Below are positions 543 through 13,272 of a DNA stretch of 37,472 bases, in pieces. Source of the DNA: an uncultured bacterium (GTDB lineage: Bacteria > Patescibacteriota > Minisyncoccia > Phycocordibacterales > UBA9973). Every line of letters begins with the position of its first letter. Position 1 is the stretch's first letter. The notes under the pieces were generated by a model. That model saw only the letters and a program-made list of their open reading frames with translations. It did not search any database and was not told where the DNA came from. Made by a program: the position numbers and the translations under genes. The DNA lies in NCBI GenBank assembly GCA_903892035.1, contig CAITGV010000003.1:1-37472 (forward strand). The letters are read 5' to 3'.

Positions 543-593
543 CAAAATAAGAAAATCCCCGATTTTAATCGGGGATTTTCTTATTTTGTCCGC
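538..593. terminator. Bidirectional terminator-like 27-bp perfect inverted repeat between convergent tRNA-Lys and the pilin gene
   Basis: 538-564 is the exact reverse complement of 567-593. Confidence 0.8.
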
Positions 594-886
594 TAGTGTG
601 TAAACGGTACAACCGTTCCACTTTCAGGATTGATTTGCGTGACACCTAAAGTATTAAGTATCAAGTGCATTATTCCAAAAACTGCAACCATTATAAATAT
701 ACCTATTATTCCCCAAAGCATATGTTGTTTCCCTGCGGACCTTTTTTCTTCGTTTTCAGAATTTGAAAGAAAAGTCACAACACCAAAAAGAAAATAAGCA
801 ATAGCTACAGCAAACATAGCAATAATCAACGGATTGAGAATCAATTTATCAATTTTACTAATTAGTATTACTGTTTTACTAGGCAT
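593..886 (-). CDS. VirB2/TrbC-like (T4SS_pilin-type) pilin, two hydrophobic helices
   Basis: Hydrophobic helix, then the SENEEKRSAGKQHMLWGIIG loop, then a second hydrophobic helix; typical of CPR pilin-like proteins. Confidence 0.75.
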   Translation of the reverse strand: MPSKTVILISKIDKLILNPLIIAMFAVAIAYFLFGVVTFLSNSENEEKRSAGKQHMLWGIIGIFIMVAVFGIMHLILNTLGVTQINPESGTVVPFTH

Positions 887-901
887 AGATATTTTCTAGA
901 A

Positions 902-1273
902 TTAAAGAGTTGGTGGTGGAAGTGTATTAACTCCTCCAGTACCTAGTGTGCCTTGAATCAAACGAATAAATCCCCAGAATGAGAAAATAACAACTAGACC
1001 GATAATACCTGAAATCATTGTTTCGCGAGCTTTCTTTTTTGATTCTTCATCATTTGCTGTGATGAATTTGATGATTCCCCAAATGAACCAAATGACACCG
1101 ATGATGATCAATGCTGGAATCAAAACATTGTTTGCAAGATCCATCAATTTACATATCAATGCTTCTACTGTACCTGCATTTTGTGTACAAGAGTACGATG
1201 CAGCCGACGCGACAAAAGGCAAAAATGCCATAAGACCCAAAAACGTATAAACTTTTATTCCAAATTTTTTCAT
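902..1273 (-). CDS. VirB2/TrbC-like pilin with signal peptide
   Basis: Signal peptide ending in ASA, a Cys pair, TM helix, ANDEESKKKARETMISGIIG loop, TM helix. Confidence 0.8.
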   Translation of the reverse strand: MKKFGIKVYTFLGLMAFLPFVASAASYSCTQNAGTVEALICKLMDLANNVLIPALIIIGVIWFIWGIIKFITANDEESKKKARETMISGIIGLVVIFSFWGFIRLIQGTLGTGGVNTLPPPTL

Positions 1274-1395
1274 TTATTTTTAATAATCCAGCAGTAGAAT
1301 AAATTCACTACGGGACAAGCTAATAATAATTTATAAACGACCTTAATAATAATTTACTCCTTTAATTATAGCACAGTAAAAACAAAAACAAACAC

Positions 1396-1980
1396 TTATG
1401 GATTCTTTGGCTCTGCAAGTCTTGGAATTGCATTATCTACTCCAAATGATTTACCAAGCATAGCAACAAAACCCCAAATTGAAACCATAACCGTAATTGC
1501 AATTATACCCCAAATCATAAATGTCTTACCTTTTTTTCTTTTCTCTTCATTGTCACCATTGCCAATAAATTGAACCACACCCCAAATGAATATTAAAATT
1601 GCTATTCCAAAAACCAGAGGAATTATCGATCGGATAATCATACAAGTTACAAAATCAAACAAATCTTTAAGTTTTGGGCTACCACCCAGCGCTCCAGTAA
1701 AATTTGTACACAGAGTTGCATCTACTTGCCCCTGCCCTGCTTGACCATTTGTAGAAAAATTTCCATTTGATTGAGGAGGACCAATTGGACCATTGTTTGG
1801 GTCAGTAGAAGTGTCACCAAGAGTACTAGTTCCCCCACCACCAACTCCATTTAAACTAGAATCTACAGGTGGAATAGAACTATTACTTCCCCCTCCAACT
1901 GGAAATGTTTGTGCATTTACAGAAAATGGTAAAACAAAATTTATTATTATAAGAAAACTAATTAAAAATTTTTTATACAT
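1396..1980 (-). CDS. VirB2/TrbC-like pilin with Gly/Ser/Thr/Asn-rich N-terminal extension
   Basis: Start moved to ATG 1980 (MYKKFL..., signal peptide ending in VNA), which avoids overlap with the upstream gene. C-terminal TM-GDNEEKRKKGKTFMIWGII-TM. Confidence 0.8.
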   Translation of the reverse strand: MYKKFLISFLIIINFVLPFSVNAQTFPVGGGSNSSIPPVDSSLNGVGGGGTSTLGDTSTDPNNGPIGPPQSNGNFSTNGQAGQGQVDATLCTNFTGALGGSPKLKDLFDFVTCMIIRSIIPLVFGIAILIFIWGVVQFIGNGDNEEKRKKGKTFMIWGIIAITVMVSIWGFVAMLGKSFGVDNAIPRLAEPKNP

Positions 1981-1982
1981 AT

Positions 1983-2285
1983 TTAAAGTTGATTTATTGT
2001 ATCGCCCAAGGCATTTGCTAATACCCAAGCGCCTAATAATATTGCTCCACCGATGACAGTCCAAAGGAAACCGGTTTTCGCTTTACTAAGTTTCTCTGTA
2101 TTTCCAGAAGCTGTAACAAAAAGAAAACCACAATAAATAATTGCGACAGCAACAATTGGCACACCTATAATTACTACGGCATGTAAAATTTGCCCAATAA
2201 ATTCAGGCAAAGTATTTGCTGATGAAAGCGGATTTTTTATTGGGACATTTACTGTTAGATCTCCTGTAGCTGCGTAAGCATTCAT
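1983..2285 (-). CDS. VirB2/TrbC-like pilin
   Basis: IKNPL motif, TM helix, GFLFVTASGNTEKLSKAKTGFLWTVIG loop, TM helix. ATG 2285 lies 6 nt after a TATAAT; the alternative start is TTG 2303. Confidence 0.8.
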   Translation of the reverse strand: MNAYAATGDLTVNVPIKNPLSSANTLPEFIGQILHAVVIIGVPIVAVAIIYCGFLFVTASGNTEKLSKAKTGFLWTVIGGAILLGAWVLANALGDTINQL

Positions 2286-2303
2286 AAAAATATTATATAA
2301 CAA

Positions 2304-2699
2304 TTAACTTTTAATACCAAGGAATAATAATGCATCGTTTGCTCCAAGCATATACAAAATAAATTTAACTATTACCCATGATGCCAAAGCAATAATAAAA
2401 CCAGTGACAACACTAATAAGGACGTGTTTAGCTTTTGTTTTTGCTTCAGATGATCCCCCACTAGAAATCAAAAGAAAACCTCCATAAGCAAAAGCAATTG
2501 CAGCAAGAGGTACAGCCATATCTTTCAATAGAAAATCAATAACATTGTTTATGAGTGTCATCAAACTGTCAAAGTTGCAGTGTCCAGGATTTTCTACTGT
2601 CTCACACGGTATGATAGTTCTTGCACTTGCAAAAAACGGCGCAAATATGCCAAAAATTAAAAATAGAGTAGAAATATATTTTTTATATAATTTTTTCAT
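2304..2699 (-). CDS. VirB2/TrbC-like pilin with signal peptide
   Basis: Signal peptide ending in ASA, IIPC...C motif, TM helix, GGFLLISSGGSSEAKTKAK loop, TM helix. Confidence 0.8.
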   Translation of the reverse strand: MKKLYKKYISTLFLIFGIFAPFFASARTIIPCETVENPGHCNFDSLMTLINNVIDFLLKDMAVPLAAIAFAYGGFLLISSGGSSEAKTKAKHVLISVVTGFIIALASWVIVKFILYMLGANDALLFLGIKS

Positions 2700-6330: not shown

Positions 6331-6729
6331 ATGGCAATTATACTTATATTATTTTGTATTTCTTTAATCGGGCTCTCGAGCATGATTTCGTATCGTGCCT
6401 GGGAGCTTCGAACGGGGAAAATTGATTTAGCTAATATAGAAAGTTTACCTGCAATTCCTCATTTAAAACTAAATATTAAACAAATTAAAAAAGCTACTCC
6501 GGTTGTCACAAAATATATAATTCACTCCATACTTTTATTTTTTGCAAAAAATTACTTACAACTTAAAAAATTTATAAATAGAGTTCTAAGTGAAAGATTT
6601 CCAAGACTATTTGCAAATAATGAATTAAATGGTAGAACAGCAAAACCGACTTCCTTTTTTCTTCGAACTATGGCAGAGTATAAAGTGAAATTGCGAAAAA
6701 TGAAGGAAAGAATGGCCGACGAAGATTAG
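6331..6729 (+). CDS. Hypothetical membrane-anchored basic protein
   Basis: 132 aa ORF starting 4 nt after tsf, with an N-terminal hydrophobic helix. Confidence 0.7.
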   Translation: MAIILILFCISLIGLSSMISYRAWELRTGKIDLANIESLPAIPHLKLNIKQIKKATPVVTKYIIHSILLFFAKNYLQLKKFINRVLSERFPRLFANNELNGRTAKPTSFFLRTMAEYKVKLRKMKERMADED

Positions 6730-6733
6730 GGGT

Positions 6734-6802
6734 AAATGTCTAATGACTAATTTCTAAAATCTATTTTTGATTTATTAGATATTAGATATTGTGATTTAGT
6801 TA
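6734..6802. repeat. Inverted arrays of degenerate heptamers
   Basis: aaatgtc/taatgac/taatttc/taaaatc followed by ttagata/ttagata/ttgtgat/ttagtta. Confidence 0.5.
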
Positions 6803-6815
6803 TTGTATTATTATT

Positions 6816-6891
6816 GCCGCTTTAGCTCAGTTGGTAGAGCAACGCTTTTGTAAAGCGAAGGTCCTCGGTTCGAGTCCGAGAAGCGGCTCCA
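6816..6891 (+). tRNA. tRNA-Thr (anticodon TGT)
   Basis: gccgctt/aagcggc acceptor stem, ttTGTaa anticodon loop, ggttcgagtcc T-arm, encoded CCA. Confidence 0.97.
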
Positions 6892-6932
6892 GTGTAAAAC
6901 TAAAAAGGTTCTGTCAACGCATAACTAAAACA

Positions 6933-6965
6933 AAGGTCCTCGGTTCGAGTCCGAGAAGCGGCTCC
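6933..6965 (+). repeat. 33-bp direct repeat of the tRNA-Thr 3' end (att-like)
   Basis: Identical to 6858-6890 (aaggtcctcggttcgagtccgagaagcggctcc). Confidence 0.95.
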
Positions 6966-6997
6966 TTAACCCGACTTTTTGGTTGGGAATCAAGAAA

Positions 6998-7293
6998 GGA
7001 GTGTCTTTACGATTCCGCTCGAACTTACTTTATCAAAAATTTGTGAGAATATCCACAAGCGTTCCCCGCGCGCTGAAGCGCCACCACGCGAAGCGTGGTG
7101 CTTCTGCTGAAGCAGAAGTGCGGGAAACGCCCTGCACTCCGCCACAATGTTTTGGGGGCAAAGGAGGCGAAGTGCAGAAATGCGGAACGCGAGCGAAATT
7201 TTGCGAAATGCTGGGGGTTTGGGGGAAAGTATTTCGCAAAATTCGCTTCGCGTACTTCCTGATTTTTTGGCGGGATTTTGGCGGGGCGGGCTA
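6998..7293 (+). repeat. Left long inverted repeat of island 1
   Basis: Reverse-complement match to 9174-9471. The inner 108 bp (7186-7293) is identical to the reverse complement of 9174-9281. Confidence 0.95.
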
Positions 7294-7331
7294 AAAAAAT
7301 TAAATTGTTCTTTTTAACAAAAGTAGTTTAT

Positions 7332-7934
7332 TTATGTTTGACAATTCTCAATAATTTTTTGCATTTTAATCCTACACTTATCTAAAATTTTTGATTCCCA
7401 TTCAGAATTTTTTAGCTCTCCAACATATAGATTTAATTCCTTATGTAACTCATATAAAAATTTAGTCGCGTTTATTGTCTTATTTTCTAAAAGAGATCCT
7501 CCTCTTTTTATTCGCCATCCGCCAGTTGTCTCACCTTGGTGTAAAATACCACAACGAATATGTTTGTAAAAATCTTTTTTAGAAAACTCTTTTAATGTAA
7601 TAGTCTTATTAAAAAAATCGTTAAATATTTTATCACCCCCTTTCGGGGTTTTATCCCACCCATTCTTAAATGATTGAAGTGCTTCTATACAAAGACAACA
7701 GTTCGCCATTATTGCAAATCCGCTTTTATATTCTTTCTTAAAAATATTATTCTCAAAAGTAAATGGTTTAAGATACCTACCATACAATCTACAAAAAATC
7801 ATTTTGGCTATGGCTGATTTATTTTTTTCGTTAACAAATTGCTCATAATTTTTAATCGTTACATCTTTACCATTTTCAAGTGTTGCTAAAATAATATCAT
7901 CGGTATTCGATTTATATTTTTTAGTTTTTATCAT
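7332..7934 (-). CDS. Hypothetical protein, possible HEPN-like (RxxxxH) domain
   Basis: 200 aa, helical, with IEALQSF and FYKHIRCGILHQ (R-x4-H). Confidence 0.6.
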   Translation of the reverse strand: MIKTKKYKSNTDDIILATLENGKDVTIKNYEQFVNEKNKSAIAKMIFCRLYGRYLKPFTFENNIFKKEYKSGFAIMANCCLCIEALQSFKNGWDKTPKGGDKIFNDFFNKTITLKEFSKKDFYKHIRCGILHQGETTGGWRIKRGGSLLENKTINATKFLYELHKELNLYVGELKNSEWESKILDKCRIKMQKIIENCQT

Positions 7935-11531: not shown

Positions 11532-11813
11532 TTACATTGCCTTTGGAGCCTCAGGCATGACACCCATACACTTTTTACAGTGGCAACCTCCGAAAGCCTT
11601 CATGGCAGCACATAGACCCACCACAACGTAAACGATAGATTCTACAGTACCTGAAAAACTAAAAATTGTATGTACTAGATTAAATTCTGATCCAAAAAGA
11701 GCACTAACTCCTACTATTCCCCAATTCAAACCTCCGACGATTAGAAGCCATTTTGCAATAATTGCAGTTGTACACTTTGAACCACATTTTCCTCCTTCGC
11801 ATGTTCCTGTCAT
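11532..11813 (-). CDS. DUF378-family small membrane protein with Cys-rich termini
   Basis: LLIVGGLNWGIVG...FNLVHTIF...IVYVVVGL signature. Confidence 0.85.
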   Translation of the reverse strand: MTGTCEGGKCGSKCTTAIIAKWLLIVGGLNWGIVGVSALFGSEFNLVHTIFSFSGTVESIVYVVVGLCAAMKAFGGCHCKKCMGVMPEAPKAM

Positions 11814-11942: not shown

Positions 11943-12755
11943 ATGCATAAACATTATAAATTAAAGAAAATACATATGGATGATGAACAAATAGTAATAG
12001 TAGAAAATATTTCACCCGTGGTAGAAAACAAAACGAATGGGTTGTCTGTACCTACTGCAATTATTATTGCAGGACTTATGATTGCAATATCAATATTTGC
12101 AACATTTGGACATTTTGGTGGAAATGATGGAGTAAAAACAATAGCTCAAAGAGCTGGTTTAAATATTTCAAAATTTAATACCTGTCTTGCAAGTAATAAA
12201 TATGATGCAAAAATTACTGCAATGCATAAAGAAGGTGAAGCAATCGGCATCGATGGCACTCCGTTTTCTGTAATTATTGCCAAAGATGGAACAAAAGTTC
12301 CAGTTGTTGGCGCGCAAGAGTACAATACATTTAAGGGAATTATCGATGGACTTCCAAAAGTTCCAACACTTGACCCAAGACTTGCAGCATATCATTTAGA
12401 TAAAGTAAGCCCAGTGGATCCAACAGAACACATATTTGGAAATCCAAACGCTGATATAAAAATAGTTGAATATTCTGATACTGAATGTCCATTTTGTAAG
12501 CGTATAGAACCAACACTCAAAAAACTTGTTGCTGATTACGATGGAAAAGTTGCTTGGGTATATCGCCACTTCCCGCTTGATTGTAATGACAGTGTGGACC
12601 CAAGTTGCCAAACTCTTCACGCAAAATCCCGCCACGAAGCAGTAGCGACAGAATGCGCAGGTGAGCAAAAAGGTAATGATGGTTTTTGGAAATATATCGA
12701 CGCACTATACACCGCCACTCCATCAAACGACGGCTTCGACGCGCAAATGCTGTAG
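11943..12755 (+). CDS. DsbA-family thiol-disulfide oxidoreductase, circularly permuted, membrane anchored
   Basis: The EYSDTECPFC active site is at aa 182-185, but the GIDGTP cis-Pro loop is upstream at aa 102-107. The start could be the Met at 11976. Confidence 0.88.
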   Translation: MHKHYKLKKIHMDDEQIVIVENISPVVENKTNGLSVPTAIIIAGLMIAISIFATFGHFGGNDGVKTIAQRAGLNISKFNTCLASNKYDAKITAMHKEGEAIGIDGTPFSVIIAKDGTKVPVVGAQEYNTFKGIIDGLPKVPTLDPRLAAYHLDKVSPVDPTEHIFGNPNADIKIVEYSDTECPFCKRIEPTLKKLVADYDGKVAWVYRHFPLDCNDSVDPSCQTLHAKSRHEAVATECAGEQKGNDGFWKYIDALYTATPSNDGFDAQML

Positions 12756-12780: not shown

Positions 12781-13272
12781 TTACTCTACTAAAATTTTTA
12801 TAACTGGCAAGTTTGATTCTTCAATTTCTTTTTCCAGAAAATTTTGTATCGTTTTTGCATCATCAAATGAAATATCTTTTCTGAGGTTTATTCTTTCTTT
12901 CAGCAATTCGTCGTTAATTAAAAGATATACAACAAGCTCAGTGCCCACCGCAATACTAGTACCAAAAGCAGGTTGACCAGCTTCTACATATGCTCTCTTG
13001 GCGCGTAGCTCAAGTCTTTTTTTGCGATTTTCCGGAGTAAGCGGCGCATTGTAATAAAAAGATTTTTCTTCTTCAGTTAATTCCGGGGCTAAATCAGATA
13101 TCTCTATTCCTTGCGATATATTCTTGAGCAGAGTTGTTTTTCCGGTGCAGGCAGTACCGACAACTGAAATACGTTTATCCTTGTTTTCCTCCAAAACTAA
13201 TCTAAGTTTTTCCAAAGTTTTATTGCGATTTTCAAGTTGATTTCCTGTCTCCGGTTCTTTATTAAAATTCAT
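12781..13272 (-). CDS. Small P-loop NTPase/nucleotide-kinase-like protein
   Basis: ISVVGTACTGKTT Walker A; VVYLLINDELLKERINLR lid-like motif. Confidence 0.7.
   Translation of the reverse strand: MNFNKEPETGNQLENRNKTLEKLRLVLEENKDKRISVVGTACTGKTTLLKNISQGIEISDLAPELTEEEKSFYYNAPLTPENRKKRLELRAKRAYVEAGQPAFGTSIAVGTELVVYLLINDELLKERINLRKDISFDDAKTIQNFLEKEIEESNLPVIKILVE

Follow-up and report, generated by a model that had tools for sequence, protein, structure and literature searches.

The stretch of DNA analysed here (the window) comprises positions 1 to 37,472 of contig CAITGV010000003.1 of assembly GCA_903892035.1, from an uncultured bacterium of the Patescibacteria, and our subject is one of its genes, the open reading frame (ORF) at 11943..12755 on the forward strand, which encodes a protein of the DsbA family. 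An earlier note on this DNA, made from its letters alone, had described the protein as a naturally circularly permuted DsbA, in which a transmembrane (TM) anchor is followed by the segment normally found at the DsbA C-terminus, then by a linker and then by the normal N-terminal half. The ORF is indeed present and its translation is the 270-residue protein quoted in that note. In what follows, C-half and N-half designate the segments corresponding to the C-terminal and N-terminal parts of a canonical DsbA, a and b number the helices and strands of the DsbA topology, and the parts of the gene are these (HMM, hidden Markov model; AF2, AlphaFold2):

11943..12755, forward strand: whole ORF, predicted circularly permuted DsbA-family oxidoreductase, 270 residues plus stop.
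11976, forward strand: alternative start at M12, giving the 259-residue database gene call P0002.
12042..12107, forward strand: N-terminal signal anchor or TM helix, about residues 34-55, LSVPTAIIIAGLMIAISIFATF, read from the sequence.
12135..12350, forward strand: C-half, residues 65-136, with helices a4-a6, GTP loop, strands b4-b5 and helix a7, from HMMs, AF2, solved-structure matches and BLASTP.
12183..12185, forward strand: Cys81 (in NTCL), forming a second Cys pair with Cys238.
12255..12263, forward strand: G105-T106-P107, the cis-Pro-loop motif, kept in all 38 permuted proteins compared.
12351..12428, forward strand: Pro-rich linker of 26 residues, 137-162, from the old C-terminus (a7) to the old N-terminus (b1).
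12429..12752, forward strand: N-half, residues 163-270, with b1, b2, CPFC at the start of a1, b3 and helices a2-a3, from Pfam, HMMs, AF2, solved structures and BLASTP.
12486..12497, forward strand: active site C182-P-F-C185.
12582..12611, forward strand: ten-residue insert CNDSVDPSCQ, residues 214-223, with Cys214 and Cys222, in the b3-a2 loop.
12654-12656, forward strand: Cys238 (in ECA), partner of Cys81 in the second Cys pair.

A Lys/His-rich stretch precedes the TM helix and a lipobox Cys is absent by our reading of the sequence; in the AF2 model the anchor is the helix at 39-53. The C-half reads IAQRAGLNISKFNTCL...GIDGTPFSVII...VVGAQEYNTFKGIID, a segment that normally forms the DsbA C-terminus, and it carries the cis-Pro-loop motif, which packs against CxxC in thioredoxin folds. 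The second part of the linker (LDKVSPVDPTEH) resembles the pre-domain segment of canonical relatives, and AF2 models the linker as a loop, mostly confident, with a short helix at 145-149. The N-half reads HIFGNPNADIKIVEYSDTECPFCK...YRHFPL...ECAGEQ...FWKYIDALYTATPSNDGFDAQML up to the stop, and the end of the protein (...TPSNDGFDAQML) falls in the a3-a4 loop.

Order of the halves and predicted fold

Two Pfam profiles each match the protein in two stretches: Thioredoxin_4 (PF13462; E = 1.2e-21, 78.1 bits against a cut-off of 23.2), with its best stretch at residues 160-227 (profile positions 3-71 of 165), and DSBA (PF01323; E = 8.7e-17, 62 bits against a cut-off of 25.6), with its best stretch at residues 174-225 (profile 2-53 of 191). 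The end of a third profile, Thioredoxin_5, falls on residues 62-131 (profile 114-185 of 186), weakly and below threshold (whole-protein E = 0.0064, 16.7 bits against a cut-off of 27, no single stretch passing), and a model specific to the window protein was not found in NCBIfam. Using BLASTP against the canonical relative P0109 (246 residues, named at its source 'Periplasmic thiol:disulfide interchange protein DsbA [Parcubacteria group bacterium GW2011...]'), residues 152-270 align with P0109 59-169 at 57% identity, residues 67-135 with P0109 172-240 at 48% identity and the TM segment 30-64 with P0109 10-44; the halves show no overlap and no real gap on P0109, in swapped order and within one ORF. 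Canonical relatives read ...TPSNDGLDPAEL followed directly by PKIAxxxGLDxxKFNTCL..., and the window protein stops at this junction and resumes just past it.

HMMs specific for each half find the C-half and then the N-half. Among solved structures, 3gyk_A pairs residues 159-217 with its 11-68 and residues 60-111 with its 99-150, the latter weakly (5.2 bits, independent E-value (i-E) 1e+02), and 4n30_A pairs residues 161-264 with its 45-137 (E = 2.1e-13). The DsbA topology is the reference for the rotation, and its order (b1, CxxC-a1, b3, helical insertion, cis-Pro, b4-b5, a7) is not kept here, a4-a7 preceding b1-a3. The order of parts proposed in the earlier note is thus the one returned by Pfam, HMMs, structures and BLASTP alike; its claim that the halves are complementary and non-redundant agrees with their end-to-end placement on P0109, and the HMM matches in reversed order that it expected are given by both the Pfam profiles and the half-specific HMMs. 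The homology of the window protein to the DsbA family is not in doubt despite the rotated order. In the comparison with P0109, the tripeptide NDG occurs at both new ends (NDGVK at 61-65, NDGFD in the tail); we considered it as a relic of the rearrangement and rejected it, as it is missing in P0003, and it is probably there by chance.

The AF2 model, obtained with an alignment of 110 rows (38 permuted proteins, supplemented by rows for single halves, N or C, taken from different canonical genomes), has a mean predicted local distance difference test score (pLDDT) of 84.6 and a predicted template modelling score (pTM) of 0.76, with ten-residue block means of 88-98 for residues 71-260. Its first segment comprises helices 67-70, 75-84 and 88-101, strands 108-112 and 118-122 and helix 127-136; after the linker come two strands (163-166 and 172-178), a helix (183-198), a further strand (203-209) and a last helix (229-258). 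The active site C182-P-F-C185 is found where the predicted helix 183-198 begins, and G-T-P 105-107 immediately before the predicted strand 108-112. The structure prediction suggested by the earlier note therefore returns one confident domain, in which the order of the modelled elements appears as a rotation of the DsbA order. An independent model of the same protein in the ESM Atlas has a pTM of 0.71, and its nearest structural clusters align 182-192 residues of 62-270, clusters that match the N-half only ending at about 120 residues.

When the predicted model was compared with the PDB using Foldseek, the best match was 4n30 (Pseudomonas aeruginosa DsbA2; 111 columns, root-mean-square deviation (rmsd) 2.5 Å, 36% identity), and the probability was 1.0 for 4n30, 3f4r and 3eu3 over the N-half. 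Canonical DsbA proteins (4n30, 3f4r, 3eu3, 7unn) align over about 105-120 columns at rmsd 2.5-4.4 Å and on one half only, because all of these have the canonical order and the alignments are sequential. The engineered permutant cpDsbA_Q100T99 (1un2) stands at rank 6, with 224 columns, a target template modelling score (TMt) of 0.48, rmsd 7.6 Å and E = 0.023; few matches exceed 200 columns and 1un2 is the only one of them with an rmsd below 10 Å, chains of ScsC, BcfH and DsbC being at 15-21 Å. This match between a model and a structure is suggestive, not conclusive.

Two complementary halves might also complete each other between chains, in a domain-swapped dimer or oligomer on the membrane, and it is generally known that circular permutants and split thioredoxin folds can swap in this way. 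We consider this unlikely for the window protein, since the AF2 model of the monomer is confident over both halves and the linker, and since a linker of 19-34 residues, as found among the permuted proteins, should suffice to close the old termini; Hennecke et al. are said to have found in 1999 that five residues sufficed in engineered permutants of E. coli DsbA. We therefore favour one domain folded within one chain.

Rows 4 and 7 of the ESM Atlas structural matches are clusters whose labels are mostly Myxococcota, and they align to residues 63-270 (185 residues) or 63-206. From these clusters, permuted DsbA-like proteins may exist outside the Patescibacteria.

Recurrence of the permuted order and conserved residues

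Among the 120 close homologues listed, 117 are canonical and three are permuted (P0002, the window protein itself; P0003, 68% identity; P0015, 43% identity). We then considered genome loci, taking the best 80 of 226 relatives in species-representative genomes (GTDB): in seven (L001-L005, L054 and L076) the C-half comes first, each of them a single ORF of 223-288 residues with an N-terminal TM helix, 72 are canonical, and L080 has an N-half only. When 1.84 billion cluster representatives (50% identity) were searched with a profile, 1450 matched at E <= 1e-30, and the best 150 of these, classified with the half-specific HMMs, comprise 31 permuted, 59 canonical and 57 tandem or multi-domain proteins, with three others (NCC twice, N once, where N and C stand for the halves). 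Homologues with the same order, as well as the tandem-domain relatives that the earlier note had proposed to look for, are thus present in these samples. For comparisons, 38 permuted proteins were assembled (the window protein, P0003, the seven locus ORFs and 29 cluster representatives), which are 35-69% identical to the window protein. The permuted DsbA is an inherited arrangement, not a one-off, and forms a populated family in Patescibacteria.

A misassembly, which the earlier note had named as a way to refute its claim, could have created the gene if a chimeric contig or a collapsed tandem repeat had put the 3' half of dsbA before its 5' half; in its favour, the source genome is of the uncultured type and the break, judged by BLASTP against P0109, is suspiciously exact. 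This scenario is contradicted by the recurrence of the order in 38 distinct sequences, among them single ORFs in seven other species-representative assemblies from different projects and 29 further cluster representatives, and by the permuted relatives, which diverge to about 35% identity yet retain the motifs. In addition, the reading frame is continuous and the neighbouring genes abut the ORF, a search for DNA repeats at the gene returned zero direct repeats and only three short inverted pairs, and the composition profile there shows no break. We regard an assembly or binning artefact as extremely improbable.

Characteristic DsbA motifs are retained across the permuted set. The GTP loop is found in 38 of 38 proteins and CxxC in 36 of 38 (CPFC in 32, CPYC in four, CPFS in the remaining two), while Cys81 (NTCL) and Cys238 (ECA) are both found in all 38 and also in the canonical relatives inspected. 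Cys81 and Cys238 would form a structural disulfide that joins the C-half to the N-half within the helical domain. The CPFS proteins are L003 (5713-6579) and one other, and each could be a single-cysteine variant or reflect a sequencing error.

These counts bear on a second possibility raised by the earlier note, that the gene is a decayed tandem DsbA in which the C-half of a first domain and the N-half of a second remain, with no working domain and either no activity or another role. Tandem multi-domain DsbA proteins are common among the relatives (the 57 of the best 150 representatives mentioned above), and CPFS replaces CxxC in two of the 38 permutants. Such decay is contradicted by motifs, catalytic as well as structural, that persist despite deep divergence and by the exact complementarity of the halves; the predicted structure is moreover a confident single domain, and the permuted gene fills the sole DsbA slot of a conserved neighbourhood in which sister genomes hold a canonical gene. 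We judge this explanation very improbable and retain that of a permuted domain under conservation.

The earlier note had also pointed to an extra Cys-pair insertion. The insert CNDSVDPSCQ is real, with Cys214 and Cys222, but it does not mark permuted forms as such: of the 38 permuted sequences, the window protein (P0001) and P0003 alone carry it, the permuted L001 is without it, and the canonical syntenic orthologue L031 has a similar insert, DCVDDKSDSC, around ...HFPLDCVDDKSDSCTPLH. Because a canonical protein carries a like insert, we consider it a feature of the lineage and not a part of the permutation.

Locus, lineages and break sites

The window genome is that of a Nomurabacteria-like member of the Patescibacteria, and related loci are mostly titled Candidatus Nomurabacteria or Parcubacteria/Patescibacteria metagenome-assembled genomes. 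The window encodes S2, Tsf, a DnaJ-domain protein, a family 2 glycosyltransferase (GT2), a DUF378 protein, the permuted DsbA, a small P-loop protein and a NUDIX protein, and further sigma-70, DnaG, RpoC, RpoB and four ORFs resembling pilins of type IV secretion systems (T4SS). The gene lies in a conserved slot, S2-Tsf-...-o228-GT2-DUF378-[dsbA]-sigma70-DnaG-RpoC, which holds a permuted gene in the window, L001, L002, L004, L005 and L076 and a canonical gene in L030, L031, L049, L066, L069 and L079. Since the slot is common to both topologies, permuted and canonical genes are positional orthologues.

A tree of seven flank proteins, independent of dsbA, was calculated with bootstrap support. It places the permuted L002, L004, L005 and L076 with the canonical L030 (98), then with the canonical L049 and L069 (100), the window with the canonical L066 and L079, and L001 with the canonical L031 (72). 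A DsbA tree of the loci was calculated on 80 units, with the N-half and C-half columns brought into a common order (fast search mode, -fast; Shimodaira-Hasegawa-like approximate likelihood-ratio test, SH-aLRT; L045 and L080 excluded for their incomplete C-half). Here L002/L004/L005/L076 are nested among the canonical L030/L049/L069 (aLRT 97.1), the permuted members being monophyletic (98.2), the window protein, P0003 and L001 are joined (95.3) near the canonical L074 and L066, and the permuted L003 stands beside the canonical L071 (85.5). In pairwise identities calculated for each half separately, L002/L004/L005/L076 are nearer to the canonical L030/L049/L069 than to the window protein. On a set of 38 permuted proteins, 61 canonical proteins and six tandem units, parsimony counts 17 or 19 changes of order, and constraining all permuted proteins to one side of a branch costs 283 log-likelihood (lnL) units (p = 0.0006 in the approximately unbiased (AU) test, p-AU; IQ-TREE -fast, LG+G4). 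From these sequence comparisons there were at least two permutation events and probably three or more, the candidates for separate events being the window/P0003/L001 group, the L002 group, the L003 group and perhaps L054.

A single old permutation could give the same picture if gene conversion with canonical paralogues, allele replacement across the flanks or tree error had scattered it. Three lineages share an identical break (...L followed by P/K-I-A/S), which would be unexpected of independent events; only 177 columns are aligned; the insert links the window protein and P0003 to the canonical L031 while the permuted order links them to the insert-less L001; and many loci have, 1-3 kb away, a second thioredoxin-like gene that is a potential conversion donor. 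On the other side, the AU test rejects one clade (difference of 283 lnL units, p = 0.0006), the dsbA-independent flank tree nests L002/L004/L005/L076 within L030/L049/L069 at bootstrap 98-100, both halves give agreeing identities, the break sites differ among groups and fall into three classes, and under one origin the slot's canonical genes would have to be reversions, that is, further permutation events. A single origin seems to us rather doubtful, and we prefer several.

The second thioredoxin-type match was observed near the canonical L007, L009, L011, L012, L014, L016 and others, as a weaker N-half match (31-37% identity) at 1-3 kb from the DsbA gene, and by its sequence it looks like a paralogous thioredoxin-fold gene.

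The three classes of break sites are defined by the new ends. Class A proteins end ...TPSNNGLDxxxL; this is the type of the window protein and also of the L002/L004/L005 and L003 groups, which appear independently derived. Class B proteins, to which L076 and L054 belong, end just past a3, for example ...KFVDAVFAG. In class C (P0139, P0156, P0157, P0165 and P0186), the tail continues through the next helix (...LDPAEIPNIAQFAGAK), helix a4 being kept in the C-terminal tail, while its N-terminal counterpart has degenerated or is missing. Such a one-helix overlap of the ends is what a duplicate-then-trim route predicts. Tandem DsbA proteins have two to five domains, as NCNC up to five domains and variants (the 57 of the best 150 representatives), and in-frame domain duplication is therefore common in this family. 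As an observation in its own right, the tandem-repeat proteins lie among P0122-P0267, and arrays of such size are unusual in themselves.

We infer that the most likely origin is duplication followed by trimming, in place: a whole or partial domain duplication would have occurred at the orthologous locus and both ends would then have been trimmed. The class A break may recur because structural tolerance is narrow. We take the a3-a4 loop to be also the cut site of the engineered Q100/T99 permutant, residues 99/100 presumably lying in that loop. On balance we lean, if cautiously, towards nature having permuted DsbA three times or more in Patescibacteria, in place within an orthologous single-copy slot and at the a3-a4/a5 region tolerated in the engineered E. 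coli DsbA.

Several genes around the slot deserve mention. The small DUF378 membrane protein (window 11532-11813, reverse strand) is encoded divergently beside dsbA in permuted and canonical genomes (L001 5645-5902, L002 5563-5841, L004 5484-5849, L005 5234-5527, L076 5608-5892), and in the window it has Cys-rich termini (MTGTCEGGKCGSKC... and ...GGCHCKKCMG). A role as substrate or partner of DsbA is conceivable, or the linkage could be mere synteny. Four consecutive small ORFs (window 593-2699, reverse strand) match T4SS_pilin / TrbC-VirB2 pilin; these are exported proteins and hence possible clients of DsbA. A P-loop NTPase-like ORF of 163 residues (window 12781-13272, reverse strand) has weak AAA_28/AAA_18 matches only, is convergent with dsbA with 25 nucleotides between the stop codons, and is absent from the slot in the other syntenic loci. 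In L076, an IS200-like (Y1_Tnp) transposase ORF (6706-7383, reverse strand) lies directly downstream of the permuted gene, and the permuted protein is shortened further, ending ...KVFEI.

Proposed working and relation to known DsbA proteins

The earlier note's central claim is borne out by the reversed HMM order, the complementary halves, the recurrence and the single-domain model, and we hold it highly probable that the product of this gene is a membrane-anchored thiol:disulfide oxidoreductase of the DsbA family in naturally circularly permuted form, folded as one ordinary domain, which most likely arose by duplication and trimming in a family where the halves were swapped at least two to three times. 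Several findings weigh against this reading. AF2 run on the single sequence, with no alignment, reaches only pLDDT 38.4 and pTM 0.20, and in the 110-row alignment the halves are linked only by the 38 permuted rows; the match to 1un2 is weak in absolute terms (E = 0.023, rmsd 7.6 Å). A CNC or NCN form at a single locus was not seen, and most tandem units fall outside the single-domain clade, so that the tandem proteins sampled are not direct ancestors. In the flank tree, canonical genomes separate the window from L001 at support of 72-89 only, and the trees of DsbA are based on 177 columns, with free and constrained searches run with -fast and LG+G4. Finally, neither VKOR nor DsbB was found among the 33 plus 9 ORFs of the 37-kb window.

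In the proposed enzyme, the chain would run from the TM anchor to a4-a7 with the cis-Pro loop, through the 26-residue linker closing the old termini, to b1-a3 with CPFC, the new ends lying in the a3-a4 loop of the helical insertion domain. Both segments would fold into one DsbA domain in which the GTP loop contributed by one segment lies opposite CPFC at the beginning of a1 in the other, and the pair Cys81-Cys238 probably staples the two segments together. The N-terminal helix would tether the enzyme on the outer face of the cytoplasmic membrane, a placement suggested by the basic residues that precede the helix and by the absence of a lipobox. There, CPFC would oxidise or shuffle the cysteines of exported proteins, with the GTP loop completing the active site, and a quinone-linked VKOR or DsbB encoded outside the window would re-oxidise it. 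All these functional steps are drawn from family membership. In the window protein the tether leads, within only about nine residues, into helix a4 of the helical domain, and in canonical relatives it leads into strand b1; as a speculation, the moved tether could alter how the domain is held relative to the membrane.

The nearest known proteins are the canonical DsbA-like proteins of Patescibacteria (P0109; L030, L049, L066, L069, L079), to which the window protein is 50-60% identical over the N-half and 43-50% over the C-half. Like it, they have an N-terminal TM anchor, CPFC, a GTP loop and the second Cys pair, and they occupy the same chromosomal slot as the permuted gene, between DUF378/GT2 and sigma70/DnaG; the permuted forms differ by their swapped halves, their linker of 19-34 residues, their termini in the helical domain and a TM tether at a4 instead of b1. 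Solved canonical DsbA proteins (P. aeruginosa DsbA2, 4n30; Wolbachia alpha-DsbA1, 3f4r; Bacillus subtilis BdbD, 3eu3; Corynebacterium TsdA/DsbA, 7unn and 4pwo) have the thioredoxin fold with helical insertion that is predicted for the window protein, as well as CxxC and a Thr-Pro loop of the cis-Pro type, which the window protein would share, and 3f4r, as judged from the title 'C97A/C146A' of its entry alone, has a second Cys pair too. The tandem proteins P0135 (420 residues, two domains), P0149 (430 residues), P0122 (974 residues) and P0123 (1163 residues, five domains) contain within them a contiguous C-then-N arrangement, and a profile built from the permuted proteins aligns to them without interruption over positions 70-268. 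A duplication model calls for intermediates of this kind; unlike the permutants, the tandem proteins have complete domains at both ends.

The engineered cpDsbA_Q100T99 (1un2) is, like the window protein, a permuted DsbA with new termini inside the helical domain. Unlike the natural permutants, it is man-made and soluble, with a short designed linker and 11% identity in the alignment, whereas they have a TM anchor and a second Cys pair; the break sites of the two would be equivalent. Hennecke, Sebbel and Glockshuber reportedly carried out random circular permutation of E. coli DsbA in 1999, and 1un2 is attributed to that work.

In the literature, DsbA figures as an engineered permutation dataset, with citation of Hennecke et al. 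1999, in the passages at hand of one source (PMC3281007); the sections at hand of the natural-permutation survey CIRPIN bring in DsbA only through the Hennecke citation, and the word 'thioredoxin' is absent from its main text (PMC13552848). Thioredoxin-like folds are known to include circular permutations, according to an excerpt of a further source (PMC3091736). A natural permuted DsbA was not found in a full-text search that left most subscription journals and the CIRPIN supplements outside its scope, and an earlier report is possible. Natural circular permutants are known in many families; to our knowledge, there are few in which one slot holds orthologues of both topologies and candidate intermediates are available as well.

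DsbA, a textbook protein for permutation in the laboratory, was reportedly the protein of the first systematic laboratory permutation, and a natural family broken in the same region would be an independent test of which chain breaks the thioredoxin fold tolerates. Permuted DsbA proteins are a sizeable unannotated group in Patescibacteria: ordinary profile annotation labels them merely 'thioredoxin domain' or 'DsbA', and sequential aligners cover only half of them, so that the family is probably invisible in current catalogues. If our interpretation is true, the canonical, tandem, overlapping-end and trimmed forms would constitute a rare natural series from which the evolution of a permutation could be reconstructed, and they may show how a shift of the tether from the thioredoxin to the helical domain changes the way in which such an enzyme meets its partner and its substrates.

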